Assembly: GCA_029100965.1 (NCBI GenBank) | Contig: JAQXQC010000038.1 | Span: forward strand, 1-47,053 | DNA length: 47,053 nucleotides | Source of the DNA: Bacilli bacterium | GTDB lineage: Bacteria; Bacillota_I; Bacilli_A; RF39; UBA660 | Direction: 5' to 3' | Part shown: in pieces, positions 7,365 to 27,187 of the stretch | Layout of the letters: every line of letters begins with the position of its first letter | Position numbering within the stretch: the first letter of the stretch is position 1 | The notes under the pieces: model-generated | The model's input: only the letters and a program-made list of their open reading frames with translations | Told to the model about the DNA's origin: nothing | The model's database searches: none | Position numbers and translations under genes: made by a program

Positions 7365-7370
7365 TAGTTT

Positions 7371-9050: not shown

Positions 9051-9065
9051 TTTGGAGGTGAAAAG

Positions 9066-9605
9066 ATGCGAAGACAATATGATGATTTTACTCAGTTGAA
9101 AATAAAAGATATGAGTAAAGTAATAAGTGATATGACTTATAAGTATATAAATGAAGAAAGTAATTCTCCAACAGTAGTTCCCTCATCACATTATGAAAAA
9201 ATTCTTAGTCAAGTACAAGAAAATTATTTAGGAGAAATTACGAGTAGACAATTTTTAGTGATTATGTATAATCAATTGAATGCATTAAAAAAAGAAGATG
9301 AAAAATATTTTTATCAAGCATTATTATGTTTAGACATGGGATTAAATCCTAAAGATTTAAGATTAGATGAACAAATAGCTATTTCTTATACTTATGATTA
9401 CTTATCTAGTATGCAAAAAGTTGAGAAAAAGGATTTTCGGTTTTTAAATGAAAATATTACTGATGCTTATCATCACTATAAAGAAGATCCAGAGATTCAA
9501 AGACAAGCAATAGAGGCAAGTAATACTATAGAGAAAAAGGAGAATCCATCTTTGGTAGATGATAGTAAGAAAAATTATAATAGAAATGATATTTTTGAAA
9601 GATAA
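9066..9605 (+). CDS. Hypothetical ICE protein (179 aa)
   Basis: ORF preceded by a GGAGGTG RBS; no motif recognised. Confidence 0.5.
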   Translation: MRRQYDDFTQLKIKDMSKVISDMTYKYINEESNSPTVVPSSHYEKILSQVQENYLGEITSRQFLVIMYNQLNALKKEDEKYFYQALLCLDMGLNPKDLRLDEQIAISYTYDYLSSMQKVEKKDFRFLNENITDAYHHYKEDPEIQRQAIEASNTIEKKENPSLVDDSKKNYNRNDIFER

Positions 9606-9608
9606 TTA

Positions 9609-9962
9609 ATGGTGATGTTTATGGAAATAAAAATTAATAAAGAAATAAGAAGTTATACAGAAAATATTTATTTTGGATTGTCTTTAAGGCAATTCTTTTT
9701 TTCTGTATTAGCTTGTGTATTGGCAATAATTATATATTTTACATTTCATGGGATTCTTCCTAATGAAATTGTTTCTTGGTTATGTATATTGGTAGCAATT
9801 CTACCTATTACGATTGGTTTTGTAACATATAATGGAATGCCTGCTGAAGTATTTTTGAAAGAAATTTTTAAATTCTATTTTCTAATTCCAAGGTATTTAG
9901 TGTTCAAGCCTGTTAATTATTACAATGAAGTTTTGAAAAGGAAGGAGAACTATGATGTTTAA
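9609..9962 (+). CDS. PrgI-family / VirB3-like membrane protein
   Basis: Two TM helices; the stop overlaps the VirB4 start, the usual VirB3-VirB4 arrangement. Confidence 0.7.
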   Translation: MVMFMEIKINKEIRSYTENIYFGLSLRQFFFSVLACVLAIIIYFTFHGILPNEIVSWLCILVAILPITIGFVTYNGMPAEVFLKEIFKFYFLIPRYLVFKPVNYYNEVLKRKENYDV

Positions 9963-12285: not shown

Positions 12286-12362
12286 TATTTTATTTATGTA
12301 TTATTAATTAATTTATGTTAAAATGTAGTAGAGCCTAAAGGTAGTAGAATGGGGTGAAATTA

Positions 12363-12638
12363 ATGAAAAAATCTGAAATTATTGCATTAATTGCTGAGAA
12401 TACTGAATTAAGTAAAGCAGATGTTGAAAGAGTTTATAATGCAACTTTTGATTTGTTTAAGGATGAATTAGCAAAAGGTAATAAAATTTCAGTTTCAGGA
12501 TTTGGTACTTTTGATATTTCTGAAAGAGCAGAAAGAGAAGGTAGAAATCCTCAAACTGGTGAAACAATTAAGATTGCTGCTAGTAAATCAGTAAAATTTA
12601 AAGCTGGTAAAGAATTAAAAGAAAAAGTTAATGGTTAA
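12363..12638 (+). CDS. hup: HU-family DNA-binding protein
   Basis: GFGTFDISERAEREGRNPQTGETIKIAASKSVKFKAGKELK is a canonical HU beta-arm signature. The ATG at 12363 is preferred over the GTG at 12354. Confidence 0.9.
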   Translation: MKKSEIIALIAENTELSKADVERVYNATFDLFKDELAKGNKISVSGFGTFDISERAEREGRNPQTGETIKIAASKSVKFKAGKELKEKVNG

Positions 12639-12641
12639 TAT

Positions 12642-14189
12642 TTGGAAAACATAATTCAAACGAGATTTTTATATATTTTAAGCAATGTATTTAAATCTTT
12701 TTTTTTTTGTGGGGTGATTGACATAAAGATAAAGGTAAAAAATATTTCTAAAAACGGAATAAAATTACTAAAAAAAGAAATTATTTTAGCTGATAAGTTA
12801 AAAGATAATGTAGTTGATATAAAAAATAAAAGTAATGAATTAGTAGCCAAAGATGATTGTAATATTACTGAGTACGCTAATAATAAAGTTAATGAATTTA
12901 CAAAATTATCTACGGAAAAAAACTTAAAAAAAATTAATGGAATTGGGCGTAAATCATTTAGAAACACAAAGAAAAATTTCATAAAATTAAAGAATAAAAT
13001 ATCAAAAAATAAAAGTAATAAGAGAAATAAAACTAATATAAAAATAAAATCCTCAAATAACAACTTAAATAATGTTCAAACTATGAATAAAATAGTAAAA
13101 AGAGATTCACAAAATCAGTCATTAAATTTTTTAAAAAGAAAATTAAGAAATTCAATAGTAATTGTAAAAAAATCAGTAAGAGCAGCATTTATTACTATTA
13201 AAAATACAATAACAGGCATGAAGGCAGTAGTAGAGTTATTGATAGCTGGTGGTTGGGTTATAGTAATTATTATAATTATAGTATGTATTGTTGGAATATT
13301 GTGTACTTCTAGTTTTGGTATCCTTTTTTCCAATGAGCAAGATGATGATAGTTTGAAAATATCTGCTATTATAGTAGAAATTAATAATGATTTAAGCAGT
13401 AAAGTGGAAGAAATAAAAAGAAATAATATTTATGATAATTGTAATATTAATACTAGTATTTCTAATTGGAAAGAAATATTAGCTTTTTATAGTGTTTATG
13501 CAATTAGCAATAACAAAGATTCTATTACTTTTGATAGAGATAAAGTAAGTGATATTAAAAGAATTTTTTGGGAATTTAATACTATAAATTATAGATTAGA
13601 TTTAAATAAAGTTTTATATATAGATATTAATAGTAAAAGTTTAGAGAAAATGATGAATAATTATAATTTTTCTTTAGACCAAAAGGAGGAAGTTAATAAT
13701 TTATTAAATAGTGAACTTGATTCAATGTGGAATGGAATTATATATAATAGCACAAATAATAATAAATGGATATTTCCTGTAAGTGATTTTTATGTTATTA
13801 CAACTTATTATAGTCAAGAGCATCAGGCTTTAGATATAGCGTCATCATATAATACTAATATTCATTCAATCGCGGATGGAACAGTTATTTTAGTAAAAAA
13901 TGGGTGCGTTGCTGGTAATTTATCTTGTAATGGTAAAGCAGGTAATTATATAACAATTAAACATGACGGAGGATATTATTCTCAATATATGCATTTAAAT
14001 AAAATAATGGTAAATGTAGGGGATAAGGTTAGTGCAGGAGATGTGATTGGAACTATGGGAAATACTGGAAATGTTATTCCAATTCCTCCTAATTCATCTT
14101 CAAAATTAGGAACGCATTTGCATTTTGTACTATATGATGGGCAAAGAAAAAATTTAAAAATAAATCCAACTATCTTTTTTAATTTGTAA
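12642..14189 (+). CDS. Membrane-anchored M23 metallopeptidase (T4SS cell-wall hydrolase). Start uncertain.
   Basis: C-terminal HQALDIA ... GNYITIKHDGGYYSQYMHL ... GNTGN ... GTHLHF M23 motifs; one TM helix (LLIAGGWVIVIIIIIVCIVGILC); K/N-rich N-terminal region. The TTG at 12642 has no clear RBS. Confidence 0.8.
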   Translation: MENIIQTRFLYILSNVFKSFFFCGVIDIKIKVKNISKNGIKLLKKEIILADKLKDNVVDIKNKSNELVAKDDCNITEYANNKVNEFTKLSTEKNLKKINGIGRKSFRNTKKNFIKLKNKISKNKSNKRNKTNIKIKSSNNNLNNVQTMNKIVKRDSQNQSLNFLKRKLRNSIVIVKKSVRAAFITIKNTITGMKAVVELLIAGGWVIVIIIIIVCIVGILCTSSFGILFSNEQDDDSLKISAIIVEINNDLSSKVEEIKRNNIYDNCNINTSISNWKEILAFYSVYAISNNKDSITFDRDKVSDIKRIFWEFNTINYRLDLNKVLYIDINSKSLEKMMNNYNFSLDQKEEVNNLLNSELDSMWNGIIYNSTNNNKWIFPVSDFYVITTYYSQEHQALDIASSYNTNIHSIADGTVILVKNGCVAGNLSCNGKAGNYITIKHDGGYYSQYMHLNKIMVNVGDKVSAGDVIGTMGNTGNVIPIPPNSSSKLGTHLHFVLYDGQRKNLKINPTIFFNL

Positions 14190-14266: not shown

Positions 14267-15331
14267 ATGAATAAAAAAATATTTCGATTGTTTGTAGTAT
14301 TATTGGGATTTTTATTTCCAAATTTTGTTTTTGCAGCAGAAGATTCCTCGGCGTTTTTACAAATATATTATGATGAGGGAATGAGTTCTGGAGTTTACAA
14401 ATCTGAATCTGATGTTCCTGAAGGATTGCATTCGTGCATTGAAAATTACAAAGGTTTTAGTTATGATGGGGATAAAACGGTTACATTCAACAATGTGAAA
14501 AATCCTTATGTTGTTGCTTTAAAGTCCGTGAATATAAAAATTGCGGGAAATAATAATATTAGTATGTTTGGAAATCGTGCTAGTAATGAAGAATTAGCTA
14601 AGATTTCTGTAACTGGAGATGGAGTATTAACAATTAAAAAGGCTGTAGCATTAGGAGAAAGCACTAAAGAATATACAAATAATGATTTATTAGAATATGC
14701 TAAACAATTTGTTTCAACTGATTTACCAACTTATATTAATTGTGAGGGTGATTTAGTGATTGGTGGAAAAAAACCAATTTGTGAAATCAATAAAGATTTT
14801 GTAGGAATATCAAGTGATAAAGATTTAACTGATTATTCATTGGAAGTTATCGATAATAAAGATAAAATTTCTAATGAAAAAATGGACTTAATTAATACAA
14901 ATATTGGTGGTAAATTACTATATTCGTATGATGTTAATTTGTTGAATGGAGACAACACTAAAGTTACTAGTGGTAATTTTAAAATTAAATTTCCAATTAA
15001 TGATGAGTTAAAAAAGTATAGTGAATTTAAGGCTGTTTATTTGGATTCTAATTATGATGTAAAGGAAACTTTCGAAGTAGAGAAAGTTAATGATTATTTA
15101 GTTTTTAGTACTAATCATTTAAGTAATTATGCTCTTGTTGGATTACAAACAATGGGAGATATAAATAATGATGGAAAAATTGATTTAAAAGATGTTATTA
15201 AATTATTAAAAGTATATTTAAAAGTAGAGGAAGCTCCATCAAATATTATCGAAGTTGGAGATATGAATAATAATGGTAAAATTGATATGAATGATATTAT
15301 TAAATTACTAAAAACTTATTTAAATTCCTAG
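14267..15331 (+). CDS. Secreted dockerin-bearing protein A (unknown N-terminal domain)
   Basis: Signal peptide ...FVFA-AE; C-terminal two-repeat dockerin GDINNDGKIDLKDVIKLLKVYL / GDMNNNGKIDMNDIIKLLKTYL. Confidence 0.85.
   Translation: MNKKIFRLFVVLLGFLFPNFVFAAEDSSAFLQIYYDEGMSSGVYKSESDVPEGLHSCIENYKGFSYDGDKTVTFNNVKNPYVVALKSVNIKIAGNNNISMFGNRASNEELAKISVTGDGVLTIKKAVALGESTKEYTNNDLLEYAKQFVSTDLPTYINCEGDLVIGGKKPICEINKDFVGISSDKDLTDYSLEVIDNKDKISNEKMDLINTNIGGKLLYSYDVNLLNGDNTKVTSGNFKIKFPINDELKKYSEFKAVYLDSNYDVKETFEVEKVNDYLVFSTNHLSNYALVGLQTMGDINNDGKIDLKDVIKLLKVYLKVEEAPSNIIEVGDMNNNGKIDMNDIIKLLKTYLNS
15155..15328 (+). other. Dockerin module (two Ca-binding repeats) of protein A
   Basis: A DxNxDGxIDxxD loop followed by a helix, occurring twice. 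Confidence 0.8.
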
Positions 15332-15365
15332 AAAGTAGTGTTTTTATTAATTACTACTTTTTTTG
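15332..15365 (+). terminator. Rho-independent terminator
   Basis: AAAGTAGT / ACTACTTT 8-bp stem followed by a T run. Confidence 0.65.
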
Positions 15366-15455
15366 TTTAAACTTTATAAATTTATTATTATATATTTATT
15401 GAAATTAACCATTAAATAGGTGTAGAAGATATTTTTGTAAGAAAAGGAGAAGAAA

Positions 15456-17435
15456 ATGAGAAAAAAATTATTAGTATTTATTTTAATGCTATTTCCGATT
15501 ATGGTGGATGCAAAGGTTGTAAATCAATATACTTATACAAAAAATGAATCACTTTATTGGACAGGGTTAGATACTGTTGGTTTAGGGTACAACTCTGAAA
15601 ATGTTTATCCCATATATGATTATGTGGATGAAAATGGATATTTTCATAATGTTTATCAAACTAGGGATTTAAATTATTTATATTGGAGTAGTTATGATAA
15701 AAGTATGAAAATGACCAATACCATTAAAATTCCAATGTATTTTAATAAGGATAATTTAGATACTATAGGTGAAATATTTTATCATCCTTTTGCTCAAGCG
15801 ATATATAAAGATGGTTATTTGTATGTTGCTTATACATTTCCTGCTACAAATAAAAGTCTAGGAAGTGTTTATACTCAAAAGGTATTAGCTATTGTGAAAT
15901 ATGATACAGATGGAAATGTTATTGTCTCAAAAGATTATACTGGAGAAGTATTGAATGCTTCAAATTATCAGAGTGGTGGTTCGCAGATTATTGCTTATGG
16001 GACATCATCTGTTAGTATGACTTTGAATAATGATGAATTAACTTTGTTCTTTGGTAGGAACATGTATAATAGTCATGAATCTAGTTTGTTTGCCGTTTTC
16101 GACAAAGATACATTGACACATAAAAGTGTTTTTTATAAAGATTATTCGATGGAATTAGGTGGTAAGTATTACAAACTTGCTCAATTATCCATTTCTCATT
16201 CCTTGGGGCAAAGGATAATTACAACTTCTGATAATGAGTATTTAGCGGTAGAATTGGGAGATGCCTATCCAAGAGGAGTTGTGTTAACGAAAACAGCTTT
16301 AACTTATGATTCGGAGTATGATTTAAATTATTACGAACCTAGACAATTATTAATGTCTTCATTTAGTGAATCTGCTAAAGGAAGTAATGGAAACAATATT
16401 ATAAATTATGAGTTAGGAAATATTATTGAACTGGATGATGGATATTTATTAGTTGGAGCTACTACTAAGAATTTAACTTTAAATTGGTCGAGTTATATGA
16501 ATAATCCTTATAATCTATATGTACAAAAATATAAAAAAGATATTCATAGTTGTAAAAATGCTGAAGGTTGTCAGTTGTTTAACGTTGATTCTATAAGTGC
16601 TACTGGTGATAAACCAACGGATACTTCTAGTGGTGATATTTATTTGACTGGAAAAGAAATTAATTATGGAATGAACTTTTTAACAGATTTTAATAATAGT
16701 TCTATTATGATGCTTAGAGCAGTAAAGTTAAACAATAATAATGTGGCAATATTTTTTGAAGAAAGGGCAGTAACAACTTCAAATGATAAATTAACTGTTG
16801 ATACGAGTAAAAAAAGTAGTGCTTATTACATGGTAATAGATCATGATGCTAATATAATTGTACCTAAAACAAAATTAGATAATGTAACTTTAAGTGGTGA
16901 AGAGCATTATGTGTATCATGATGGTTATGTTTATTTTAGTTCTATTTATGATAAAACGATAACAGTAAATAAGATAGATGTTTTGAATCAAATAGAAAGT
17001 ATTAATTTGGATAAAAGTGAAGTGTCTATAGATTATAATCATTCTATTAAAATAAATGCTACATTAAATCCAAGTGATACTTTTATGGATAAAACGATAA
17101 AATGGACATCAAGTAATCCTTTGGTTGCTGACGTTGATCAATCAGGCACGATAACGGCAAAGTACCCTGGTAGTGCAGTTATTACAGCAACAACTTCAAA
17201 TGATAAAAAGGCTACAGTTAAGGTAAATGTAACGGGTGATTATCCTGTAGTGAAAGGCGATATTAATGGGGATAATAAGATAACTCTTTCAGATGTATTA
17301 TTATTGATAAAGATTTATTTTGGAAAGATAACACCAACAAATGTTCAGGTAATAGCAGGAGATTTTAATGGTAATAGTAAAATAGATTTGAGTGATATTT
17401 CGTCTGAAATAAAATTGTATTTTAATAAAAATTAA
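15456..17435 (+). CDS. Secreted dockerin-bearing protein B (about 480-aa unknown domain, then Big_2, then dockerin)
   Basis: Signal peptide; Big_2-like segment at about 16990-17232 (LNPSDT..KTIKWTSSNPLVADVDQSGTITA); dockerin GDINGDNKITLSDVLLLIKIYF / GDFNGNSKIDLSDISSEIKLYF. Confidence 0.85.
   Translation: MRKKLLVFILMLFPIMVDAKVVNQYTYTKNESLYWTGLDTVGLGYNSENVYPIYDYVDENGYFHNVYQTRDLNYLYWSSYDKSMKMTNTIKIPMYFNKDNLDTIGEIFYHPFAQAIYKDGYLYVAYTFPATNKSLGSVYTQKVLAIVKYDTDGNVIVSKDYTGEVLNASNYQSGGSQIIAYGTSSVSMTLNNDELTLFFGRNMYNSHESSLFAVFDKDTLTHKSVFYKDYSMELGGKYYKLAQLSISHSLGQRIITTSDNEYLAVELGDAYPRGVVLTKTALTYDSEYDLNYYEPRQLLMSSFSESAKGSNGNNIINYELGNIIELDDGYLLVGATTKNLTLNWSSYMNNPYNLYVQKYKKDIHSCKNAEGCQLFNVDSISATGDKPTDTSSGDIYLTGKEINYGMNFLTDFNNSSIMMLRAVKLNNNNVAIFFEERAVTTSNDKLTVDTSKKSSAYYMVIDHDANIIVPKTKLDNVTLSGEEHYVYHDGYVYFSSIYDKTITVNKIDVLNQIESINLDKSEVSIDYNHSIKINATLNPSDTFMDKTIKWTSSNPLVADVDQSGTITAKYPGSAVITATTSNDKKATVKVNVTGDYPVVKGDINGDNKITLSDVLLLIKIYFGKITPTNVQVIAGDFNGNSKIDLSDISSEIKLYFNKN
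17256..17432 (+). other. Dockerin module (two repeats, divergent type) of protein B
   Basis: Two DxNGxxKIxLSD loops, each followed by a helix. Confidence 0.75.
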
Positions 17436-17515
17436 CAAGGAATGTTATTAATTTTTTATTGATTAAGTTGCTAATATATTATTAATCATAGTGTAAAAAA
17501 TAACTGACATATTTA

Positions 17516-17544
17516 TTGAAGATGGAGATTTTATATGATATAAT
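17516..17544 (+). promoter_or_regulatory. Candidate extended -10 sigma-A promoter of the scaffoldin gene
   Basis: TTGAAG, 17-nt spacer, TGaTATAAT (TATAAT at 17539-17544). Confidence 0.5.
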
Positions 17545-17565
17545 ATCATTGGAGGAGGATGTGAA

Positions 17566-20500
17566 TTGAAAAGGATACAAAAGAGCCAAAAAATGAAGGC
17601 TCAAAGAAAGGTTAAAAAGGGGGTTTTGGGCCTTGGAATATTTCTTTCTTGTTTTTTAGCGGCTATTGTTTATGTTTGTGCAGCGGATGTTCCTACATTT
17701 ACATTAAAGACTGACAATACCAAATTAGAACGTGGTCAAGAATTTACTATTTCTGTCGAGACAAGTAATATGCCAGATTCTACTGAATTAGCGGACATAA
17801 TAACTTATGATACAGATGCTTTTGAATTATCTGATTATGATGATACTACTGCTAATTTAACTAAAAAAGATGTTACTAAGTTAATTGTTCCTTCGGAAGA
17901 AGATGGAATGGTTGCATTCATTATGGGAGTAAATGATGATGCGTTAGAAGCAGGAAAAAGAATTAATTACAATGGCATTTTACATACAGTAACATTTACA
18001 GTAAAAGATTCAGCAAAAGGTGGAAAATATGAATTTCAACTTAATTCTTCATTAAATAATGTAGACACTGAAATTGATACTAAATCCCAAAATTTAAGTG
18101 TTGATGTTGTAATACCAGTTGATCAAACAAGTGTTAGTTTAGCAAAAGATACATTTGAATTGAATAAAGGTGAAACTGCTCAAATCAATGTAAATTATGC
18201 TCCAGCTGATACGACTGATTCCAAAGAATTTACATATTCGGGTTATAATGATAAGATTATTTCTGTTTCTAGTGATGGAAAAATTACTGCTCTTAGTGCA
18301 GGTACAACTACTATAACTGTAAATGCTTTTGGAAAAGATTATACAGCAAATGTAACAGTAACTAATCATATTAAAAGTGTTTCATTAGATGAGTCAACAT
18401 TAGAATTGGCAAAGGGAAATAGTAAGACATTGGTTGCTACTATTAATCCATCAGATACAAGTGATTCAAAAACAATTACTTGGACAAGCTCAGATAAGAA
18501 TGTTGCTACAGTTGATGAAAATGGTAAGATTAATGCTGTTGGAGTTGGAACTGCTAATATAAAAGCAACAACAGTAAATGGTATGGAAGCTATTTGTAAG
18601 GTAACCGTTATTGTTCCATTAACTAATGCAACTCTTAGTAGTAGTAATTTGACTGTAGAAAAAGGTGAAAGTAGAAAATTAAGTGTTACTTTAGAGCCTA
18701 AAGATACAACGGTTAATGACATTCAATGGACAAGTTCAGATGAGTCTATTGCAGCAGTTGATGAAAACGGTAATGTTACTGGAATTAGTAATGGAACTGC
18801 AAAAATCACTGCAAAAGTTGGTAATTTCACTTTAGAGTGCAATGTTACTGTAGTAATTTCATTGAAGGATATTACTTTAAGTGATACAGATATTAAATTA
18901 TTACCAACTCAGAAGAAGAAAATTGATGTTGTTTACAATCCTACTGATACTACTGATAATAAAACAATTACATGGGATAGTAATAATAAAAATATAGCAA
19001 CCGTTTCTTCAGATGGAACTATAACTGCTGTTGCTAGTGGTACAACTACAATCACAGCAAAAATTGGTAATATTACTAAAAATGTTAATGTTAAAGTTTT
19101 AGTTCCAATTGATAATGTAATTATTCAACCAAGTTCAGATATTACATTAGATAAAGGAAAAAGTACAACTTTATCTGTAAGTTTTTATCCAGATAATGCT
19201 GAAGAGGACAAGACTGTTATTTGGTCAAGTGATAAAGAATCAGTAGCAACAGTTGATAAAAATGGAAAGGTTACTGCTATTAGTGGTGGTAAAGCTGTTA
19301 TTACAGGTAAAATTGGTAGTCATGTAGTGACTGCAAATATAACAGTTGAAGTACCTGTTAATAAAGTGGAATTAAATAAGAAAACATTAAATCTTGAAAA
19401 AGGTTCCAATGAAAAATTAATTGCAACTATTGATCCTACTGATGCAACTAGAAAAGACATTGTATGGTCAAGTAATGCTAATGAAGTGGCTTCAGTGTCT
19501 TCGGATGGAGTTGTAACTGCTAAAAAGAACGGAATTGCAATAATTACTGCAACTGTTGATGGAAAGAGTGTGGATTGTACAGTAAATGTTAGTACTTCTG
19601 TTCAATCAGTATCATTAAACAAAACTACAGTTACATTGGAAAATGGTAAAACTACTGAATTAGTTGCAACAGTAAATCCAGTAGATGCTACTTATGATAA
19701 AATTGAATGGACAAGTTCAGATAAGTCTATTGCAACAGTTGTAGATGGAGTTGTAACTGCTAAGAAAAATGGTAAAGCAACTATTACAGCAACTGTTGGA
19801 GGAAAAAGTGCTTCTGCTACTGTACAAGTTATAACTTTGATTGATAAATTTGAAATATCTAAAAGTTCAATATCAATTGTTAAAGGGAAAACTTATCAAT
19901 TAGAAATAACTATTTCTCCAAGTGATACAACAGAAAGTAAAGTTGTTACTTGGGAAAGTGCTAATAAGAATATTGCAACAGTTGATAAAAATGGAGTAGT
20001 AACAGGAGTTAGTAAAGGTACTACTAAAATTACTGGTAAATTAGAAAATGGTAAAACTGTTACTTGTGATGTAGAGGTAACGATAATTCCTGTTGATTCT
20101 ATTTCTTTTGAAAATAGAGTTGTTGATGCATTAAAGGGGAAAAAATTAACTTTAAAATTAAATATTAATCCAGTAGATGCTACAGAGATAGAAGATATTT
20201 CTTATACTAGTGATGATGAAGAAATTGCAACAGTTGATAAAAATGGAGTAGTAACACCTTTAAAGAAAGGTGAAGTTACAATTACAGCAAAGATGGGTAA
20301 TTATACTGCTACGACAAAAATTGTTGTTGATGAAATTCCACTAGAAAGTATTGCATTAATTAGCACTTCCAAAAATCTTAATGTTGGAGAAAAATTAAAA
20401 TTAAACGTAGTACTTAATCCTGAAGGTGCAACAGATGAAGTAACATTTTCTTATCAATCTAGCAACGAAAAAATTGCAACGGTTGATGAAAATGGTAACG

Positions 20501-20712
20501 TGACAGGTGTTAGTGCTGGTCAAGTAACCATTACAGTTAAAGCATCAAATGGTATGGAAAGTACTATAACTTTAAACATTATTGATAAATCAAACGGAAA
20601 AGTAAGTAGTCCTAAAACTGGTGTAGTGCCAATTTCTATCTTTGGTGGTATAGCTTCAGTTTTAATCTTTGGAATAGCTTTTGTTTTAAAGAAAAAAATT
20701 GATTTAAAGTAG
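17566..20712 (+). CDS. Cell-wall-anchored scaffoldin-like protein: signal peptide, cohesin, ten Big_2 domains, SPKTG sorting signal
   Basis: TTG start 7 nt after a GGAGGAGG RBS (alternative ATG at 17593). Cohesin-like FTLKTDNTKLERGQEFTISVETSNMP...ITYDTDAFEL...NGILHTVTFTVKDSAKGGKYEFQL. Ten Big_2 repeats. C-terminal SPKTG, then a TM helix, then KKK. Confidence 0.9.
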   Translation: MKRIQKSQKMKAQRKVKKGVLGLGIFLSCFLAAIVYVCAADVPTFTLKTDNTKLERGQEFTISVETSNMPDSTELADIITYDTDAFELSDYDDTTANLTKKDVTKLIVPSEEDGMVAFIMGVNDDALEAGKRINYNGILHTVTFTVKDSAKGGKYEFQLNSSLNNVDTEIDTKSQNLSVDVVIPVDQTSVSLAKDTFELNKGETAQINVNYAPADTTDSKEFTYSGYNDKIISVSSDGKITALSAGTTTITVNAFGKDYTANVTVTNHIKSVSLDESTLELAKGNSKTLVATINPSDTSDSKTITWTSSDKNVATVDENGKINAVGVGTANIKATTVNGMEAICKVTVIVPLTNATLSSSNLTVEKGESRKLSVTLEPKDTTVNDIQWTSSDESIAAVDENGNVTGISNGTAKITAKVGNFTLECNVTVVISLKDITLSDTDIKLLPTQKKKIDVVYNPTDTTDNKTITWDSNNKNIATVSSDGTITAVASGTTTITAKIGNITKNVNVKVLVPIDNVIIQPSSDITLDKGKSTTLSVSFYPDNAEEDKTVIWSSDKESVATVDKNGKVTAISGGKAVITGKIGSHVVTANITVEVPVNKVELNKKTLNLEKGSNEKLIATIDPTDATRKDIVWSSNANEVASVSSDGVVTAKKNGIAIITATVDGKSVDCTVNVSTSVQSVSLNKTTVTLENGKTTELVATVNPVDATYDKIEWTSSDKSIATVVDGVVTAKKNGKATITATVGGKSASATVQVITLIDKFEISKSSISIVKGKTYQLEITISPSDTTESKVVTWESANKNIATVDKNGVVTGVSKGTTKITGKLENGKTVTCDVEVTIIPVDSISFENRVVDALKGKKLTLKLNINPVDATEIEDISYTSDDEEIATVDKNGVVTPLKKGEVTITAKMGNYTATTKIVVDEIPLESIALISTSKNLNVGEKLKLNVVLNPEGATDEVTFSYQSSNEKIATVDENGNVTGVSAGQVTITVKASNGMESTITLNIIDKSNGKVSSPKTGVVPISIFGGIASVLIFGIAFVLKKKIDLK
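17686..18114 (+). other. Cohesin module 1
   Basis: The spacing of hydrophobic and beta-strand signatures matches the cohesin jelly-roll pattern; read by eye only. Confidence 0.65.
18115..20600 (+). repeat. Ten tandem Big_2 (bacterial Ig-like group 2) domain repeats, each about 83 aa (about 250 nt)
   Basis: Recurring V.SVSL....L..G....L.ATI.P.DT.DK.I.W.SSD..IATVD.NG.VTA...G.A.ITA pattern, counted ten times. Confidence 0.9.
20608..20709 (+). other. Sortase sorting signal: SPKTG (20608-20622), hydrophobic helix, basic tail
   Basis: SPKTG-VVPISIFGGIASVLIFGIAFVL-KKKIDLK. Confidence 0.85.
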
Positions 20713-20720
20713 TAGAAATG

Positions 20721-20750
20721 AAGGGAACTATTATTTAGTTCCTTTTATTT
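20721..20750 (+). terminator. Rho-independent terminator
   Basis: AAGGGAACTA-TTATT-TAGTTCCTTT, a 10-bp stem (one G-U pair) plus a T-rich tail. Confidence 0.7.
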
Positions 20751-20810
20751 CTAGATTATGTGTACTTAATTATAACTTTATAATTGGTGGAGTTTTTAAA
20801 AGGAGTGAAT

Positions 20811-22325
20811 ATGGGGATTAAAGATAATTTTAAAAGGGTTTTGTTAATTATTTTATGTTTATTTACTTTAGATAGGAAAGTAATGGCTGAGTCGTATCAA
20901 GAGGTAATTGATGATATTATCAAGGATAACAAAATAGTAGTTAATAGCGTTATTCCAAAATCTTATAGTGAGGCATATACTTTTCTTAAGTATAGTATTC
21001 AATCAAACAATAAATTTAAGCAATCAAATTATTCAATTAGTGGTCTTAGTTTTAACCCTGATCAAATTAATTCTCAATTTGAAGGAGTTTATAGTTTATC
21101 TATCTGTGAAAATAGTGTGTCTAATGGTATTATAACGTGTGAAAAAGAGCATAAGTATGAAGTTAATGTAGTTTTTGATGATTCTAAAATAGATAAGTCA
21201 ATTTTAAGTAAGATAAATACTTATGATGCTGAAATTCCAAAGGGAAAGCAATATAATGTATGGAATGGTAATCCGTATGAAAATGTAGTATTTATAGATG
21301 ATATGGAGTTATTAAATTATATTTCTAAGATTAATAGTGAATATAATGACTTGATGGATTTAGATAATATTTTTAACATTTTGCGTTTTAATTCAGAATA
21401 TAAAAAGCTTACTAAGAATGTAAATTTTGCTGATTCTGGTAATGCTGCTGGCAATGGTTATGGCATTTTTTCTTCAATTGGAAGTAATGTTATTTATGAA
21501 ATTGATGGTTATATATATGGAATTTCTTCATTCCAAATTAGAGAATTTATTCTTAATGCAATATATGTAGATGAAAAGGTCGATATAACTAATAAAGATC
21601 AAGTGTTAAGTGCAGTTCAAGCAAGATTGAATGATAATTTTTCAAATGATAATTTTAATGTTTCTATTGGTGATAATACAAATTTGGAATCTTTGATAGA
21701 TGAGATACAAGAAGAATATTTATCTCCGTATGGAATGCCGTTAGATGAATCTAAAATTTCAAATCAAATTGTAAATATTAGTTTTGGAGGATATGCTTAT
21801 CCATTTTTAGTTATTCAAGATTCTTCTAAAGTTAAAAATCTTACTTTAGGTAATGTTGTAACTACTGACTTTTTAACTAATGCTTCTATTGAATATAATT
21901 CTAAATTAATACCTGCAGATTCTCAAATAAAATTAGTTCAAAATAATAATAATAGTAAAATTTTAAAAAAATTGAGATTAGCTAATGGAGACACCTTTAA
22001 TATAAATTTGTTTTCTAATACTGTTAATGATTATTTTCAATCAACTTCTAAAGATAATTTTAAAATTTCAATTCCAATCAGTGATAATTTAAAAAATAAA
22101 GATTTATTGGCTTATAGTATTGATGATGATGGAAATGTTGAAGAATATAATATTACAATAAACGATAATTATGCAATTTTTGAAAGTGATCATCTTGGGG
22201 AATATACAATTGGCTACCTTTCTAAAAGTGATGATACTAATCTAATTGGAGATATGAATAATAATGGTAAACTTGATTTAAATGATGTTATTATTTTATT
22301 GAAAAAAGTATTAGGAATAATTTAA
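20811..22325 (+). CDS. Secreted protein D with a single-repeat (half) dockerin
   Basis: The ATG at 20811 follows an AGGAG RBS. Signal peptide; unknown domain of about 470 aa; C-terminal GDMNNNGKLDLNDVIILLKKVL, present once. Confidence 0.8.
   Translation: MGIKDNFKRVLLIILCLFTLDRKVMAESYQEVIDDIIKDNKIVVNSVIPKSYSEAYTFLKYSIQSNNKFKQSNYSISGLSFNPDQINSQFEGVYSLSICENSVSNGIITCEKEHKYEVNVVFDDSKIDKSILSKINTYDAEIPKGKQYNVWNGNPYENVVFIDDMELLNYISKINSEYNDLMDLDNIFNILRFNSEYKKLTKNVNFADSGNAAGNGYGIFSSIGSNVIYEIDGYIYGISSFQIREFILNAIYVDEKVDITNKDQVLSAVQARLNDNFSNDNFNVSIGDNTNLESLIDEIQEEYLSPYGMPLDESKISNQIVNISFGGYAYPFLVIQDSSKVKNLTLGNVVTTDFLTNASIEYNSKLIPADSQIKLVQNNNNSKILKKLRLANGDTFNINLFSNTVNDYFQSTSKDNFKISIPISDNLKNKDLLAYSIDDDGNVEEYNITINDNYAIFESDHLGEYTIGYLSKSDDTNLIGDMNNNGKLDLNDVIILLKKVLGII
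22248..22322 (+). other. Single dockerin repeat of protein D
   Basis: One Ca-loop plus helix; the stop codon follows immediately. Confidence 0.7.
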
Positions 22326-22333
22326 TTTAAGTT

Positions 22334-22367
22334 AAAATCTTTTTCAAGAAATTGAAGAAGATTTTTT
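22334..22367 (+). terminator. Rho-independent terminator
   Basis: AAAATCTTTTTC / GAAGAAGATTTT 12-bp stem (one G-U pair), 8-nt loop, T run. Confidence 0.6.
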
Positions 22368-22407
22368 GCATTACTAAGTACTTAAAGTGAAACCTGTTTT
22401 TAAATAA

Positions 22408-22436
22408 TTTACATCTTAATATATACATGTTATAAT
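22408..22436 (+). promoter_or_regulatory. Candidate extended -10 promoter of the cohesin2-srtB-CAP operon
   Basis: TTTACA, 17-nt spacer, TGtTATAAT (TATAAT at 22431-22436). Confidence 0.5.
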
Positions 22437-22465
22437 GAAAACGTAGAGAATGTTAGGAGGTAGAG

Positions 22466-23287
22466 ATGAGAAAAAATGTTTTTTTGATACAAATTTTTCT
22501 TATTATACTATTATTTGTATTTTGTAATAATGTTTATGCAGAAGAGAAAACTGTTTTTTCAATGAATACTGTTACTTCATCATCTGGGGAAGATGTAACA
22601 CTTAAGTTGAGAATGGATAATAATCCAAAATTTGGATTGCTTTTTGTAAAAATATTGTATGATACAAATAAGTTAGAATATGTTGATTCAGAAGTAGTTG
22701 GATTAAAGAAAGCTTTGATAAAAGGTGTTGATCAAAATAAACAGAAAAATGTTGTATTGTATGCTTTAACAATTGATTCTAATAAATTGTTAGATGATAC
22801 TGGGGATATTTTAAAACTTAAATTAAAGATTAAAAATGATTGTAAAGAAGACACAGAAGTAAAGATAGATGTTACGGATTATGGTGTTGATGAAAATACT
22901 TCACTAGATTATGAAGTAAAAAATGGCATGGTGAAAGTAAAAAAGAATATAAAAAGTATAGATATCAGTAAAAATAATGATTTTTCTATTGCAGAAGAAG
23001 TGAAAGAGAAAAACTTAAAAAATATTACTTGGACAAGTAGTGATGAGAAAATTGCTACAGTTGATAAAAATGGAAATGTTCATTTTAAGAAAGATGGAAA
23101 TGTAACAATAACAGCGCGTGATGGAAATAAGGTTGTTTTATCAAAAGAATATTATGGTAATGAAAAGATAAAAAAACAGTTATCTATCTCGAAAAAAGTA
23201 TTATTTATTGCAGCAGGAATATTGCTTGTATTTGTAATTTTATTAATCAGTTTGTTTATACGAAAAAAGAGGAAAAATATAAAGTGA
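22466..23287 (+). CDS. Membrane-anchored cohesin protein: signal peptide, cohesin, one Big_2 domain, C-terminal TM helix
   Basis: Cohesin-like FSMNTVTSSSGEDVTLKLRMDNNPKFGLLFVKILYDTNKLEYV...GDILKLKLKIKNDCKEDTEVKIDV; Big_2 ITWTSSDEKIATVDKNGNV; C-terminal VLFIAAGILLVFVILLISLFI-RKKRK with no PxTG motif. Confidence 0.8.
   Translation: MRKNVFLIQIFLIILLFVFCNNVYAEEKTVFSMNTVTSSSGEDVTLKLRMDNNPKFGLLFVKILYDTNKLEYVDSEVVGLKKALIKGVDQNKQKNVVLYALTIDSNKLLDDTGDILKLKLKIKNDCKEDTEVKIDVTDYGVDENTSLDYEVKNGMVKVKKNIKSIDISKNNDFSIAEEVKEKNLKNITWTSSDEKIATVDKNGNVHFKKDGNVTITARDGNKVVLSKEYYGNEKIKKQLSISKKVLFIAAGILLVFVILLISLFIRKKRKNIK
22544..22939 (+). other. Cohesin module 2
   Basis: Same signature layout as cohesin 1 but highly divergent in sequence. 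Confidence 0.6.
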
Positions 23288-24021
23288 AAAAGAAACAAAT
23301 ATTGTTGAATTTATTGCTAGTGTTATTAATTTTCTTGCTTGGAATATGCATTTATAATATTTTTAAATTGTATAGAGATAATAACAGTACTTCAAAAATT
23401 ATTAGAAATATCGAAAATAAAGTTGTTATTCCAAAAATTGATCCTAGTGATGCTAGTATAATTCAACAAGAAGATAAGTTAGAACTAGAAAATGACTTTT
23501 CTAAATTAAGTAAAATAAATTCAGATACAGTTGCGTGGATAACGATAGAAAAAACGAATATTAATTATCCAATTGTTCAAACGACTACTAATAGTTATTA
23601 TTTGAATCATTCTTTTGATAAATCTTTAAATGTCAATGGTTGGATTTTCTTAAATACATTAAATGCTGGCGATTTTAGTGATAAAAATACAATAGTTTTT
23701 GGACATAATACGAATGGAAGTACTATGTTTAGTCAGTTAAAGGGAATTTATAATGGTAAGTATGGAAATGAAATAAAAATTTATATTTATTTAAGAGATA
23801 TTGTTTATAGGTATGATACTTTTTCAGTATTTTTAACAGATGAAAATGATGAAAATCCACTGGATAAATTTATAGATTATGAAAAGATATTAGAATATCA
23901 AAAACAAAGTAAGGTTAAATTTAATGTTAGTGTCAATGAAAATGAAGATATATTAACGTTGTCTACTTGTTATAATACAACAAATCAGAAAGTTATATTA
24001 ATGGCAAAGAGACTAAATTAA
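23284..24021 (+). CDS. srtB: Class B sortase
   Basis: N-terminal TM anchor; His motif TIVFGHNT; catalytic Cys in ILTLSTC; C-terminal Arg (MAKR). The GTG start overlaps the upstream stop. Confidence 0.85.
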   Translation: MKKKQILLNLLLVLLIFLLGICIYNIFKLYRDNNSTSKIIRNIENKVVIPKIDPSDASIIQQEDKLELENDFSKLSKINSDTVAWITIEKTNINYPIVQTTTNSYYLNHSFDKSLNVNGWIFLNTLNAGDFSDKNTIVFGHNTNGSTMFSQLKGIYNGKYGNEIKIYIYLRDIVYRYDTFSVFLTDENDENPLDKFIDYEKILEYQKQSKVKFNVSVNENEDILTLSTCYNTTNQKVILMAKRLN

Positions 24022-24058
24022 TGAAAAATATTATAAGTGAAATTTTACGGAGGAAGAA

Positions 24059-26266
24059 ATGAAAAAACGAATTATTGTACTATTTTCTTTATTATTATTT
24101 TTAGCAATTCCAAAGGTTTATGCCTTATCTACTGATGAGTTGTTAATTGTAAATGGTAATGTAATTAAAAAAAATCATACAATAGAAGATGTAAAAAAAA
24201 TGTTTGGTGATCCAATTGTTACTACAAAGTCTGCGTTTGGAGGAGAAGCATATTCTTTTAGTAGTTATGGGGATAATACTTATTATTTGTATATTGAAAC
24301 AAATGCGGATGGTGTTATTAAATCTTATGGTGCTTTGTATGGTAATTTTGAATCAAAGAATCGTAAGTATGGGGATAGTTGGTCAGATAATGGTTATGGT
24401 ATGGGAGGAGATCAAATAACTGATAATAGTGATAAAGTTTTTGGAAGTCTAGATTATAATACTACTCGTACAGAATATAATGATTATTGGAAAAAGTTAG
24501 TAGAGAATAATCGCTATCTTTATGATATGCAAAAACATACAATTGAGGCTAAAAGAATTTATAATTTAGTACAAAATTATGAATTTACGCAAACTTATGT
24601 CAGTGAAGATTTATTTGATATTGCATGGCAGTTATACACGAATAATTCTTCTTTGTATGATTATGCTAAAATTTCTAATAATCAGAAAAAAATTAGTTTG
24701 ATTAATAGTAGATCTGTTAACTACAATAATTTTTCTTTGCCTAATCCATTAAGATTATTTTCAACTGCCAAAAATTATTTCAAGGGCAGTGGTTATAAAT
24801 ATTTATTTTATGGAGTTTACCCTAATGATAATGGAACTTGGGCTTCAGAAACCTTATTTATTGATCCAACTTTTTTAGATAAAAAGGTCGAAGTACCTTT
24901 AACTAATGAAGAAAAAATAAAGTTTGCAAATGTTAAGAATCAGTATTCTATTTATAAAACGCATGCTTCAAAAATTGAAAATCCAATAGAAGAAAAATGG
25001 GATTATTCTACTTTGCCTTTAAAAGAAGGAAAATACTCAGAAGATTACTTACAATTAGTTACTGAATATTTAAATATTGCTAGAATAGGGATTGGGTTGA
25101 ATCAATTAAAGTTAAATTTGGATATGTCTGATGCTGCTCAGAAAAAAGCTGCTTTAGTTATGTACAATAATATCAATAATTTAGGGAGTGGTCATTTTCC
25201 TGAAAAACCTAGTGGAGTTACGGATGAATATTATAAAAAAGCACAATCTTATATGAATGAAAATTTATACAGTGGTGATCCACAGACAAGTATCATTAAT
25301 GCTTTGAATGATGCTTATGGTGATCCTGTAACATGTGGGCATCGATATAATTTACTTAATCCATATTATTTAGAGTGGGGGGTTGGCTCTGTAGGATCAG
25401 GTATTTCTATGGGATGGCAAGGAGCACATAAGTTTTCAGGAATGGGTTCATCTAATGTAGATTTAGTTGCATGGCCTAGTAATGGCATTTTTCCAATCGA
25501 TTTTGCTTATAATGGTATTGGAAATTGGACAGCTTATTTCTTTAATGGTTATCGGTCTACAAGTGATACTTATGTGGTGATTAAGAGGCTGAACGATAAT
25601 AGTGAATATATTATTAATAAAGATAATTTATCTTCTACAAAAGTATTAAGTTTGAATGGTAGTTTAGTAACGTTTAGGGATGATGCTATAACTTATACTG
25701 ATGGGGACGTTTTTGAAATTAATATTTATAATTTGAATGATGGTTCTGGAAATTTAGTAAATTATGCTTATCGGAGTGTTTTTTACAATTTTCCTAATGT
25801 TGATAATATTGTTGAGGCAACAGATATTTCTCTAAGTCAGGATAATGTTACAATCAAAAAGGGAGAATTAGTTCGTGTAATTGCTAAAGTATTACCAGAA
25901 GATTCTAATAATAAGTTAATGAATTTTAAAATCAAAAATTCATCAATTGCAACTGTTAGGCAAGATGGAACTATTGTTGGTGTTAAACCTGGAAAAACAT
26001 CAGTTACTGTTGAGAGTGGAAATGTTTCTAGAGTAATTAATGTTAATGTTAGTGATGAAAATGGAAATGTTCCAGATTATTTGATGGGTGACATGAATCA
26101 AAACGGGAAAATAGATTTGAAGGATATTATTATTTTAATTAAAATATATATTGGTTCAAAGCAACAAAGTGATTTAGATCTTACTATTGGGGATATGAAT
26201 CAAAATGGTAAAATAGACTTATCTGATATTATATTGACCCTTAAATTATATGTAAATCAAAAATAG
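24059..26266 (+). CDS. Secreted CAP/SCP-domain protein with Big_2 and a two-repeat dockerin (protein F)
   Basis: Signal peptide VYA-LS; CAP-like region at about 25061-25394 ending GHRYNLLNPYYLEWGVG; Big_2 at about 25818-26052; dockerin GDMNQNGKIDLKDIIILIKIYI / GDMNQNGKIDLSDIILTLKLYV. Confidence 0.8.
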   Translation: MKKRIIVLFSLLLFLAIPKVYALSTDELLIVNGNVIKKNHTIEDVKKMFGDPIVTTKSAFGGEAYSFSSYGDNTYYLYIETNADGVIKSYGALYGNFESKNRKYGDSWSDNGYGMGGDQITDNSDKVFGSLDYNTTRTEYNDYWKKLVENNRYLYDMQKHTIEAKRIYNLVQNYEFTQTYVSEDLFDIAWQLYTNNSSLYDYAKISNNQKKISLINSRSVNYNNFSLPNPLRLFSTAKNYFKGSGYKYLFYGVYPNDNGTWASETLFIDPTFLDKKVEVPLTNEEKIKFANVKNQYSIYKTHASKIENPIEEKWDYSTLPLKEGKYSEDYLQLVTEYLNIARIGIGLNQLKLNLDMSDAAQKKAALVMYNNINNLGSGHFPEKPSGVTDEYYKKAQSYMNENLYSGDPQTSIINALNDAYGDPVTCGHRYNLLNPYYLEWGVGSVGSGISMGWQGAHKFSGMGSSNVDLVAWPSNGIFPIDFAYNGIGNWTAYFFNGYRSTSDTYVVIKRLNDNSEYIINKDNLSSTKVLSLNGSLVTFRDDAITYTDGDVFEINIYNLNDGSGNLVNYAYRSVFYNFPNVDNIVEATDISLSQDNVTIKKGELVRVIAKVLPEDSNNKLMNFKIKNSSIATVRQDGTIVGVKPGKTSVTVESGNVSRVINVNVSDENGNVPDYLMGDMNQNGKIDLKDIIILIKIYIGSKQQSDLDLTIGDMNQNGKIDLSDIILTLKLYVNQK
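26087..26263 (+). other. Dockerin module (two repeats) of protein F
   Basis: Two near-identical DMNQNGKIDLxD loops. Confidence 0.8.
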
Positions 26267-26634: not shown

Positions 26635-26710
26635 ATATTTATTTTTTTTGGATTAGAGGACCACCATCTCTTATCAATTTGAAAAATCGAATTGATAGGA
26701 GGATATGAAA

Positions 26711-27187
26711 ATGGATTTACGTCCAAAAAGAAGAAAAAATAAAGATAATCCATATAAATTAAGTTGCATAAAAGATAAAAATTTATATTTTATTACTTTT
26801 AAAGATAGTAGAGGAATACTTCAAAATGTAAAAGTAACTTTAGAAGTATTTAATTTATTTAATGATTATGAACTTAAAGATATATCATTTATGAATGAAT
26901 ATGATAATCATATAGAACATATTAATCTTGAAGAGGAGCAGGTATATATGAGAATGTCTGATAAACCTAATGATTTATCTCAACAAGTACTAGAAAAAAT
27001 TAGAGTTAAAGAACTAATGCTAGAGATAAAAAAATTGCCAGAAATTCAGAGAAGAAGGTTTGTTAAGTATTATTTTGAGAATAAAACTTATGATGAAATC
27101 GCTTTAGAGGAGCATTGTACTAAAATGGCAATAAAGTTTAGTGTGGATAAAGCATTTGAAAAAATTTCAAAAAAATTACAAAAATAG
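26711..27187 (+). CDS. Sigma-70 region-4-like ICE regulator
   Basis: LPEIQRRRFVKYYFENKTYDEIALEEHCTKMAIKFSVDKA is a region 4 HTH. The AGGAGG RBS at 26697-702 fits the ATG at 26711 better than the ORF-track ATG at 26705. Confidence 0.7.
   Translation: MDLRPKRRKNKDNPYKLSCIKDKNLYFITFKDSRGILQNVKVTLEVFNLFNDYELKDISFMNEYDNHIEHINLEEEQVYMRMSDKPNDLSQQVLEKIRVKELMLEIKKLPEIQRRRFVKYYFENKTYDEIALEEHCTKMAIKFSVDKAFEKISKKLQK

Follow-up and report, generated by a model that had tools for sequence, protein, structure and literature searches.

A predicted cohesin-dockerin surface display module with its own sortase, carried as cargo of a conjugative element in a low-GC gut Firmicute

Results

Organization of the gene cluster

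The contig JAQXQC010000038.1 of a Bacilli bacterium (assembly GCA_029100965.1), whose 47,053 nucleotides were analyzed as a whole and are hereafter termed the window, contains between positions 14267 and 26266 seven back-to-back open reading frames (ORFs) on the + strand, which are named p1 to p7 in their order along this region. Comparison loci and contigs are designated by L-numbers. The proteins encoded in the cluster include two carriers of cohesins, four proteins with dockerin-type repeats and a sortase, and the features described below suggest that they probably constitute a self-contained module for surface display, with the docking of dockerins to cohesins as its predicted anchoring principle, which resides as cargo on an integrative and conjugative element (ICE) in a low-GC human-gut Firmicute. 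The genes and the domains of their products, with sizes in amino acids (aa), are:

14267-15331, + strand: p1, 354 aa, with signal peptide, unannotated passenger (aa 24-206), beta-sandwich spacer (aa 207-294) and two-repeat dockerin (aa 297-353); assigned with Pfam
15456-17435, + strand: p2, 659 aa, with signal peptide, beta-propeller passenger of ~490 aa, Big_2 domain and two-repeat dockerin; assigned with Pfam and AlphaFold2
17566-20712, + strand: p3, 1048 aa, an anchoring scaffoldin with signal peptide, N-terminal cohesin (~aa 43-186), ten Big_2 domains, SPKTG motif, hydrophobic segment and KKK tail; assigned with Pfam, profiles and a motif scan
20811-22325, + strand: p4, 504 aa, with signal peptide, passenger of an uncharacterized surface-protein family and one dockerin-like repeat; assigned by motif scan
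22466-23287, + strand: p5, 273 aa, a membrane-anchored cohesin with signal peptide, cohesin (aa 32-158), Big_2 domain (aa 155-221), C-terminal transmembrane (TM) helix and basic tail; assigned with Pfam and an alignment
23284-24021, + strand: p6, 245 aa, a class-B-type sortase whose start overlaps the stop of p5 by 4 nt; assigned with Pfam and NCBIfam
24059-26266, + strand: p7, 735 aa, with signal peptide, multi-domain passenger with a central CAP/SCP domain (~aa 336-447), Big_2 domain and two-repeat dockerin; assigned with Pfam and AlphaFold2

As read from the translations, p1 to p5 and p7 start with an N-terminal signal peptide and the sortase p6 bears a membrane anchor. The cluster is immediately preceded by genes for a VirB4-like ATPase and an M23 peptidase (12642-14189), and coordinates, export signals and this neighbor are in accord with a preliminary description of the locus, which had placed seven genes for exported proteins directly behind the hydrolase of a type IV secretion system (T4SS). 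Its view of a closed set was equally borne out by Pfam together with a six-frame motif scan across the 47 kb, which show seven dockerin repeats, two cohesins and a single sorting signal in the window. For the Pfam assignments we applied the gathering cut-offs of the families, which are 22.9 bits for Dockerin_1, 21.1 bits for CAP and 26.6 bits for Sortase.

Two cohesin proteins and a coupled sortase

Both proteins that had been proposed to carry cohesins do so, with evidence of different kind. In p5, Pfam detects the Cohesin (E 3.4e-11) and Big_2 (E 1.6e-11) families, and the family alignment reveals no sorting motif ahead of the TM segment. The N-terminus of p3 has no match to Pfam Cohesin and, as a single sequence, finds a weak match to the solved cohesin 4UMS (E 1.2e-3). 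Despite this miss, a profile built from four orthologous p3 N-termini matches the solved cohesins 5LXV (1.3e-6), 3L8Q (7.7e-6) and 4UMS (1.1e-5) and aligns in hhalign with the cohesin family of p5 (98.4%, E 7e-15), and on this profile evidence the N-terminal cohesin of p3 is real. The sequences of the two cohesins are only ~19-24% identical. In p3, the cohesin is followed by ten Big_2 stretches (Pfam, E 2e-121). The family of p5 is small, with ~15 clusters that all originate from metagenomes or metagenome-assembled genomes (MAGs). Since p3 and p5 contain one cohesin each and no multi-cohesin primary scaffoldin is found among p1 to p7, the scaffoldins resemble an anchoring device rather than a platform for the assembly of several enzymes.

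The presence of a dedicated sortase in the set, noted in the preliminary description, was confirmed by a Pfam Sortase match of p6 well above its cut-off (51.6 bits, E 9.8e-14). Among the NCBIfam classes, the class B family TIGR03064 is by far the best-scoring (E 2e-43), although its 148.4 bits remain just under the cut-off of 153.75, and the GHN, TLSTC and AKR motifs are present with their His, Cys and Arg intact in the translation. The sole cell-wall sorting signal found by the six-frame scan is located at the C-terminus of p3 (SPKTG-VVPISIFGGIASVLIFGIAFVL-KKKIDLK), and each of the four scaffoldin orthologues has SPKTG or SPQTG at this end. The motif (S/P)PxTG is cleaved by SrtB, the class B sortase of Clostridioides difficile (PMC4155245, PMC5569036), and we infer that p6 and p3 form a pair of sortase and substrate. 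In every locus with listed genes (L001-L011), the sortase gene lies immediately 3' of the gene encoding the TM-anchored cohesin, which it either abuts or overlaps, and this strict coupling suggests that both proteins would act together at the membrane.

Dockerins

The six-frame scan found exactly seven Ca-loop repeats of the dockerin type in the window, distributed as 2+2+2+1 over p1, p2, p7 and p4. The first three proteins exceed the Dockerin_1 cut-off with 28.0, 37.3 and 25.6 bits, respectively. The Ca-coordinating positions of their six full repeats, among them the loops DINNDGKIDLKD and DMNNNGKIDMND of p1, are occupied by Asp or Asn, with a single Thr. The preliminary description had listed four dockerin carriers, which holds for p1, p2 and p7 with their complete two-repeat domains but not for p4, which lacks a Pfam match and contains a single Ca-loop/helix repeat, DMNNNGKLDLND, before the protein terminates at GII*. 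A second repeat concealed by a frameshift was sought in the downstream frames and found in none of them, and p4 would at best carry a half-dockerin.

Recurrence of the cluster in other low-GC genomes

A similar cluster, with 39-54% identity, recurs in no fewer than three further metagenomic loci of low GC content (L004, L005 and L010), in which upstream sequence exists and the scaffoldin and dockerin genes could be checked. Each of them encodes a scaffoldin of ~1060-1084 aa with cohesin, Big_2 domains and an SP[KQ]TG motif, a TM-anchored protein with cohesin and Big_2 domains, a sortase and two or three dockerin proteins. Compared to the window, the identity is 39-43% for the scaffoldin, 44-48% for the TM-anchored cohesin, 43-54% for the sortase and 50% for a p7 orthologue in L005. 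The payloads vary between loci and comprise p2-type propellers, p7-type CAP proteins, BspA-type LRR_5 proteins and unannotated proteins. The GC content of all loci is 22-29%, and that of the host of the window ~27%. An alignment of six p5-family sequences searched against 185,579 species genomes retrieved one locus, L005, from an 'uncultured Bacilli bacterium' MAG, and reference genomes thus appear either to contain the family rarely or to sample it poorly.

In L001, L010 and L005, housekeeping genes (encoding a sigma factor, RNase HII, BipA and ClpB, or RuvX and MltG) follow directly 3' of the cluster with no integrase in between, and the visible flank, which covers the downstream side, contains no ICE genes. 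The unit thus apparently also occurs in chromosomal settings.

Across these loci, dockerins are on average 66% identical within a locus and 42% between loci. The p7 orthologue of L005 bears a dockerin of the L005 type, which is 67-73% identical to those of its neighbors and 45% to that of p7 in the window. Such likeness within a locus is the pattern expected if dockerins track a shared local cohesin.

Passenger domains

Pfam and NCBIfam find no glycoside hydrolase (GH), polysaccharide lyase (PL), carbohydrate esterase, carbohydrate-binding module (CBM), protease or sulfatase and no other family of carbohydrate-active enzymes (CAZymes) in p1 to p7, in line with the initial reading of the dockerin proteins as being devoid of glycoside hydrolases, CBMs and proteases. 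The passenger of p1 has no family match in PDB sequences, PHROGs, Pfam or NCBIfam and no detectable homologues. Its spacer aligns with the C-terminal domain of the p4 family (96.4%; hhalign), and this beta-sandwich preceding the anchor is the sole part that both proteins share. The p4 protein, with no match in Pfam, NCBIfam or PHROGs, belongs to a family of 534 representatives, of which its nearest homologues end in NPKTYD or NPETYD followed by a TM segment and a basic tail, which is a sortase-type signal, and others bear S-layer homology (SLH) or choline-binding repeats. A Pfam search of 38 family members returned anchor domains alone, in single members.

For p7, Pfam detects Big_2 (1.2e-11) and scores the suspected CAP domain with 18.6 bits below its threshold, but the fold is borne out by an AlphaFold2 model of aa 23-590 (pLDDT 88.7), which contains a CAP/SCP domain and retrieves in Foldseek the CAP proteins MpPR-1i, GAPR-1 and Pry1 and the CAP domain of PrgA (TMt 0.33-0.64). 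Members of the p7 family, which comprises ~95 clusters, carry dockerin or SLH domains at their C-terminus. One homologue in L013 (8337-19390) is located amid five further small dockerin genes and near a Transglut_core-LRR_5-dockerin protein in the chromosomal setting of a low-GC genome (with trigger factor, ClpP, ClpX and GH94), which indicates that some relatives possess much larger dockerin repertoires. Another, P0101 of L012 (10001-22223; GCA_037193285.1), is solitary, with no cohesin near, and resides beside a Mob_Pre relaxase and an AlwI-type restriction-modification pair.

The passenger of p2, which is followed by a Big_2 domain (Pfam, E 4e-10), was predicted by AlphaFold2 (aa 20-510) as an all-beta propeller (pLDDT 84, pTM 0.89), and p2 homologues end in dockerin or SLH domains. 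By the architecture of their relatives, the passengers of p2, p4 and p7 thus belong to families of surface proteins that use the dockerin interchangeably with other anchors.

The propeller fold also bears on a different explanation of the cluster as a minimal glycan-degrading assembly akin to an amylosome or mucinolysome, in which p2, possibly along with p1 or p4, would act as an unrecognized polysaccharide lyase or glycosidase that is held at the cell surface and feeds the cell. The p2 family contains the invariant residues Y130, H229, Q233, R234 and R254, of types (Tyr, His, Gln and Arg) that also serve in lyases. In Foldseek, the p2 model finds generic propellers, with PL24/PL25 ulvan lyases at the top (E 1e-8, TM-score 0.33), followed by GH43 enzymes, sialidases and lectins. 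Moreover, cohesin-dockerin enzyme systems acting on substrates other than cellulose do occur in gut bacteria (PMC4611034, PMC12997984). However, with TM-scores of 0.30-0.46 the structural matches refer to the propeller fold in general and are too generic to assign an enzymatic activity to p2. Besides the absence of CAZyme, CBM and sulfatase families from p1 to p7, which extends to the payloads of L004, L005 and L010, the single cohesin per scaffoldin argues against a multi-enzyme assembly, and the cluster contains neither a sugar transporter nor a catabolic gene. A role in glycan degradation thus appears unlikely.

The conjugative element and the cargo status of the cluster

The cluster is embedded in a conjugative element, as already proposed from the sequence. 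The genes for transfer and integration that flank p1 to p7, together with their neighbors, are:

1-30322, + strand: part of the ICE inside the window, defined by gene content and by comparison with ICE-free strains, with its left end beyond the window
3250-4587: relaxase, MobA/VirD2
5538-7364: VirD4-type coupling protein (T4CP)
7696-8541: TrbL-like protein
9609-9962: PrgI-like protein
9952-12285: VirB4
12354-12638: HU protein
12642-14189: M23 hydrolase
26705-27187: sigma-r4 protein (sigma-70 region 4)
28077-30547: two tyrosine integrases, the second at 29243-30547

A DUF3801 protein is likewise encoded upstream of the cluster, and uvrB and further housekeeping genes follow beyond the two integrases. 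Relatives of the VirB4 are labelled 'CD1110 family' in annotated plasmid records, and TrbL_2 and PrgI are recorded on the matching genes of a sister copy with the same backbone (L100). No match for the 12-kb region was obtained by megablast among the plasmids of PLSDB.

To what extent the cluster belongs to the element is illustrated by its relatives. The preliminary description had suggested searching related ICEs for the same cargo, and among 80 such elements from metagenomes, with VirB4 proteins of 74-79% identity, tblastn with the cluster proteins found homologues of p1 to p5 and p7 in none (0/80). L015, the closest relative examined (VirB4 79%), encodes the BrxA, BrxB and BrxC proteins of a BREX system (9158-14124) after the gene that follows VirB4. 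Even closer backbones are found in L101 and L104, which are 98.2-98.5% identical to positions 1-14128 of the window, where the homology stops, and in L102, whose VirB4 protein is identical to that of the window. All three diverge past the hydrolase gene, contain no cohesin or dockerin, and continue with a sigma-r4 gene that is only ~70% identical to its counterpart in the window. In L101 and L104 (each at 14525-22331), a Gp10_C protein and an RHS/YD-repeat protein of 2058-2069 aa replace the cohesin-dockerin block. On the basis of these comparisons, the cluster is swappable accessory cargo and not part of the transfer machinery. The idea that it moves as one block is thereby supported from two sides, the recurrence of the gene set elsewhere and its discrete presence or absence on a transfer module of 98.5% identity.

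The same data speak to the proposal, derived from the position of the genes, of a conjugation accessory in which the stalked scaffoldin with its payloads would serve as a PrgB-like adhesin in mating aggregation and p7 as a PrgA-like surface-exclusion factor. The location of the cluster immediately behind the T4SS hydrolase would fit this role, as would the general biology of the ICE family, where 71 of the 80 elements have a sortase gene 3' of VirB4, in most cases no more than 2 kb away, which implies that sortase-anchored proteins are part of it. Adhesins with SPKTG motifs are also known from the elements CTn1 and CTn7 of C. difficile (PMC5569036), and the p7 model matches the CAP domain of enterococcal PrgA (6Z9K, E 1.5e-3). 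However, besides the lack of homologues in the 80 ICEs and the occupation of the slot by RHS/YD or BREX genes in close relatives, homologous clusters reside next to housekeeping genes, and p6 is closer to the cluster sortases of L001, L004, L005 and L010 (43-54% identity) than to those of the ICE backbone (~30%). CAP proteins of fungi, plants and mammals are matched at least as well as PrgA, whose TM-score of 0.33 falls below theirs, and p7 homologues with SLH anchors are widespread beyond ICEs. No Pfam or PDB sequence match to PrgB or PrgA was found in the cluster proteins. We thus regard a function in mating as quite improbable.

In ICE-free strains with a 96-97% identical uvrB flank, the element is replaced by an arrangement of PolA-Fpg-...-uvrB. 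Homology to these strains starts at 30322 (L097, L099) or 30441 (L094), within the 3' end of the second integrase gene, of which a 77-codon ORF (L097, 7551-7784) is retained that corresponds to its last ~75 codons including the catalytic C-terminus, with just ~106 bp left in L094. Integration upstream of uvrB seems to have taken place repeatedly, with remodelling of the site. Direct repeats of attachment (att) sites were sought between the right junction and positions 1-12000 of the window, with just a 12-mer chance match as the outcome.

The backbone shows several further peculiarities. In most related ICEs, a sortase gene is located shortly 3' of VirB4, at the place where the window has the HU gene. 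A further backbone sortase lies upstream of the SSB gene, just left of the start of the window (L101 1-370, L102 1-370, L104 1-368). The HU gene with ~230 bp upstream (12125-12637) is 95% identical to a chromosomal HU region located ~4 kb upstream of uvrB in L094 (3737-4227), and DNA has apparently been exchanged between the ICE and the chromosome of its host.

A second copy of the element

A second human-gut assembly (GCA_902476575.1; L006, L100) likewise harbors this ICE, and the cluster occupies the same position in it. Between both copies, the density of single-nucleotide polymorphisms (SNPs) is 0-1 per kb over the part from the hydrolase to p4 and 14 per kb in uvrB, and the low value in the region of T4SS and cargo is consistent with an element that has spread or recombined among diverged strains. 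In L006, p4 is interrupted by a C-to-T change at window position 21063 (Q85*), the sole difference in this gene, leaving ORFs of 84 and 402 aa. The remaining six ORFs are intact in both copies examined. As a separate observation, SNPs are unevenly distributed, as p5 and the sigma-r4 gene have 10-17 per kb, the second integrase 6 and adjoining genes 0-1.4, which suggests recombination patches within the element.

The nonsense mutation in p4, together with its half-dockerin, could be taken as a sign that the cluster is a decaying remnant, picked up by illegitimate recombination and no longer working in its host. The unusual divergence of the dockerins of the window among themselves and the acquisition of the chromosomal HU region by the ICE would point in the same direction. 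Decay is opposed by the integrity of six of the seven ORFs in both copies and by the SNPs in p5, p6 and p7, which are mostly synonymous (in p5, 5 of 8), as well as by the conserved Ca-coordinating positions of the full dockerin repeats and the intact catalytic motifs of the sortase. Finally, the p5 cluster at an identity of at least 90% has 24 member sequences across several human-gut samples. Taken together, we consider this explanation to be very unlikely.

Regulatory signals

Candidate signals for transcription were located at three positions between the genes of the cluster:

17516-17544, + strand: promoter-like site, TTGAAG / 17 nt / TG-n-TATAAT, 5' of the scaffoldin gene p3, by consensus match alone
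20713-20753, + strand: terminator-like hairpin directly 3' of the scaffoldin gene p3
22408-22436, + strand: promoter-like site, TTTACA / 17 nt / TG-n-TATAAT with 11/12 matches, 5' of p5-p6-p7, by consensus match alone

A second terminator-like hairpin follows after 26266. The claim that the genes have their own promoters and terminators is matched by strong extended -10 sites before 17566 and 22466 and hairpins after 20712 and 26266, although the totals in the region, with 117 promoter-like sites (compared to 121 +/- 12 in shuffled sequence) and 4 terminator-like sites (compared to 2.8 +/- 1.6), are not above chance. An expression of the cluster independent of transfer is plausible. By analogy with sortase substrates of C. 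difficile, a riboswitch for cyclic di-GMP or another ligand was considered ahead of the genes and was dismissed, as the cluster contains no Rfam match at gathering thresholds. The sole Rfam match in the window is a pemK RNA motif (RF02913; 27415-27495, + strand; 57.4 bits at a gathering threshold of 34.8) between the sigma-r4 gene and the first integrase.

Discussion

In this study, we have characterized a cluster of genes that combines cohesins, dockerins and a sortase within a conjugative element, and the features of its components suggest how they may operate together. All of them would be exported by the Sec pathway. The class-B-type sortase p6 would cleave p3 at its SPKTG motif and link it to peptidoglycan, so that a single cohesin would be held at the distal tip of a stalk made up of ten Big_2 domains. 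The second, sequence-distinct cohesin of p5 would remain in the membrane on a stalk of a single Big_2 domain, and the overlap of the genes may provide for a stoichiometric production of p5 and the sortase. The passengers p2, p7 and p1, and doubtfully p4, would dock with their C-terminal dockerins onto these cohesins in a non-covalent and Ca2+-dependent manner, and surface proteins would thus be displayed at two depths, the zone of membrane and wall and the outer tip. In this arrangement, the dockerin would substitute for the SLH, choline-binding or sortase anchors found in homologues of p2, p7 and p4. With respect to the payloads, we can only speculate that they most likely bind or modify an external ligand, such as a host or dietary glycan, a lipid or sterol, or other cells, rather than contributing to the breakdown of cellulose. 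A transfer of the ICE would then hand sockets, ligase and plugs to the recipient together.

Several observations weigh against such a self-contained module. The three dockerins of the window are just 46-51% identical to each other and thus no closer than dockerins of different loci. They may not share one partner, and at least one of them may bind nothing in this set. The p4 protein, with half a dockerin, is a pseudogene in the sister copy, and p6 just misses the NCBIfam cut-off for class B sortases. The kit may also depend on, or cross-talk with, chromosomal cohesins and dockerins, as conceivable in view of relatives such as L013 with their many dockerin genes. Concerning the element itself, its current mobility is a presumption, given a left end beyond the window and no att repeats found, and the integrase fragment retained in ICE-free strains indicates that their state may stem from a deletion instead of representing an empty attachment site. 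Even in light of these reservations, a self-contained display module carried as ICE cargo probably accounts best for the composition of the cluster.

A more far-reaching proposal, which we put forward tentatively and consider possible but doubtful, is that the ICE delivers a complete host-independent display platform, in which the membrane cohesin and the sortase coupled to it form a loading station that captures secreted dockerin proteins and passes them to the scaffoldin during sorting. We know of no cohesin for which a role as loading station has been described. If correct, a single transfer would give a naive gut bacterium a new surface, with a change in its adhesion or niche.

Cohesin-dockerin pairs are usually viewed as chromosomal machinery for the breakdown of fibre, starch or mucin. 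Here, the pair would instead serve as a plain anchor, interchangeable with SLH, choline-binding and sortase anchors, on uncharacterized surface proteins of abundant uncultured low-GC human-gut bacteria, and the unit that encodes it alternates on the ICE backbone with cargo for defence (BREX) and toxins (RHS). If its parts bind as predicted, a surface architecture of gut Firmicutes could be acquired horizontally in one step, and the small closed set of two cohesins and three dockerins, together with one sortase and its one substrate, would offer a natural orthogonal toolkit for surface display. The cluster also highlights two widespread families of passengers, the propeller of ~490 aa and the CAP-domain protein.

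Sortase-anchored scaffoldins and cohesin-dockerin systems not directed at cellulose are established in Ruminococcus, including the amylosome of R. bromii, and in the mucinolysome of Limousia (PMC11557425, PMC4611034, PMC12997984). As presumed for p3, a cohesin protein is linked to the wall via a sortase signal in the ScaE-type system of R. flavefaciens, the R. bromii amylosome and Limousia cSca5, and secreted partners carry C-terminal two-repeat dockerins, with amylosome and mucinolysome also sharing a non-cellulose function (PMC11557425, PMC4611034, PMC12997984). In contrast to those systems, which use multi-cohesin scaffoldins, dockerin CAZymes scattered on the chromosome and a general sortase, the cluster described here encodes single-cohesin scaffoldins, a ten-Big_2 stalk and payloads with no CAZyme domain in one 12-kb block of an ICE, with a dedicated class-B-type sortase coupled to a second, membrane-anchored cohesin. 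The dockerin-fused plant-cell-wall CAZymes and the scaffoldin CBM that strictly define a cellulosome are both absent from p1 to p7, which argues against the classification of the cluster as a cellulosome. A closer parallel to p5 is found in Lachnoclostridium sp. MSJ-17 and other non-cellulolytic 'scaffoldin-containing' bacteria, which have single-cohesin proteins, some of them TM-anchored (PMC11557425), and in these bacteria as well as in C. perfringens dockerins are fused to non-cellulase domains, as in our case (PMC11557425; PMC12997984). Compared by description, these systems have no reported link to a mobile element or a dedicated sortase, and in C. perfringens, unlike here, cohesins and dockerins sit on glycoside hydrolases (PMC12997984).

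With respect to mobile surface proteins, CD0386 (CTn1) and CD3392 (CTn7) of C. difficile resemble p3 as SPKTG proteins that are processed by a class B sortase and belong to conjugative elements of a gut Firmicute (PMC5569036). Both are single proteins of the collagen-binding type that rely on the chromosomal SrtB (PMC5569036), whereas in the present case the anchored protein is a cohesin-tipped stalk predicted to recruit more proteins and the sortase travels along. PrgA and PrgB of the enterococcal pCF10 are likewise wall-anchored and borne on a conjugative element, and PrgA contains a CAP domain like p7, but we found no sequence homology, the CAP match of p7 is generic, and the cluster is dispensable cargo. 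Our literature searches retrieved no paper that unites cohesin-dockerin systems with ICEs or other conjugative elements. What is new is thus the combination, carried in swappable form on an ICE, of a compact closed set that has its own sortase, bears one cohesin on a ten-Big_2 stalk and a second, sortase-coupled one in the membrane, and includes payloads with no assigned function.

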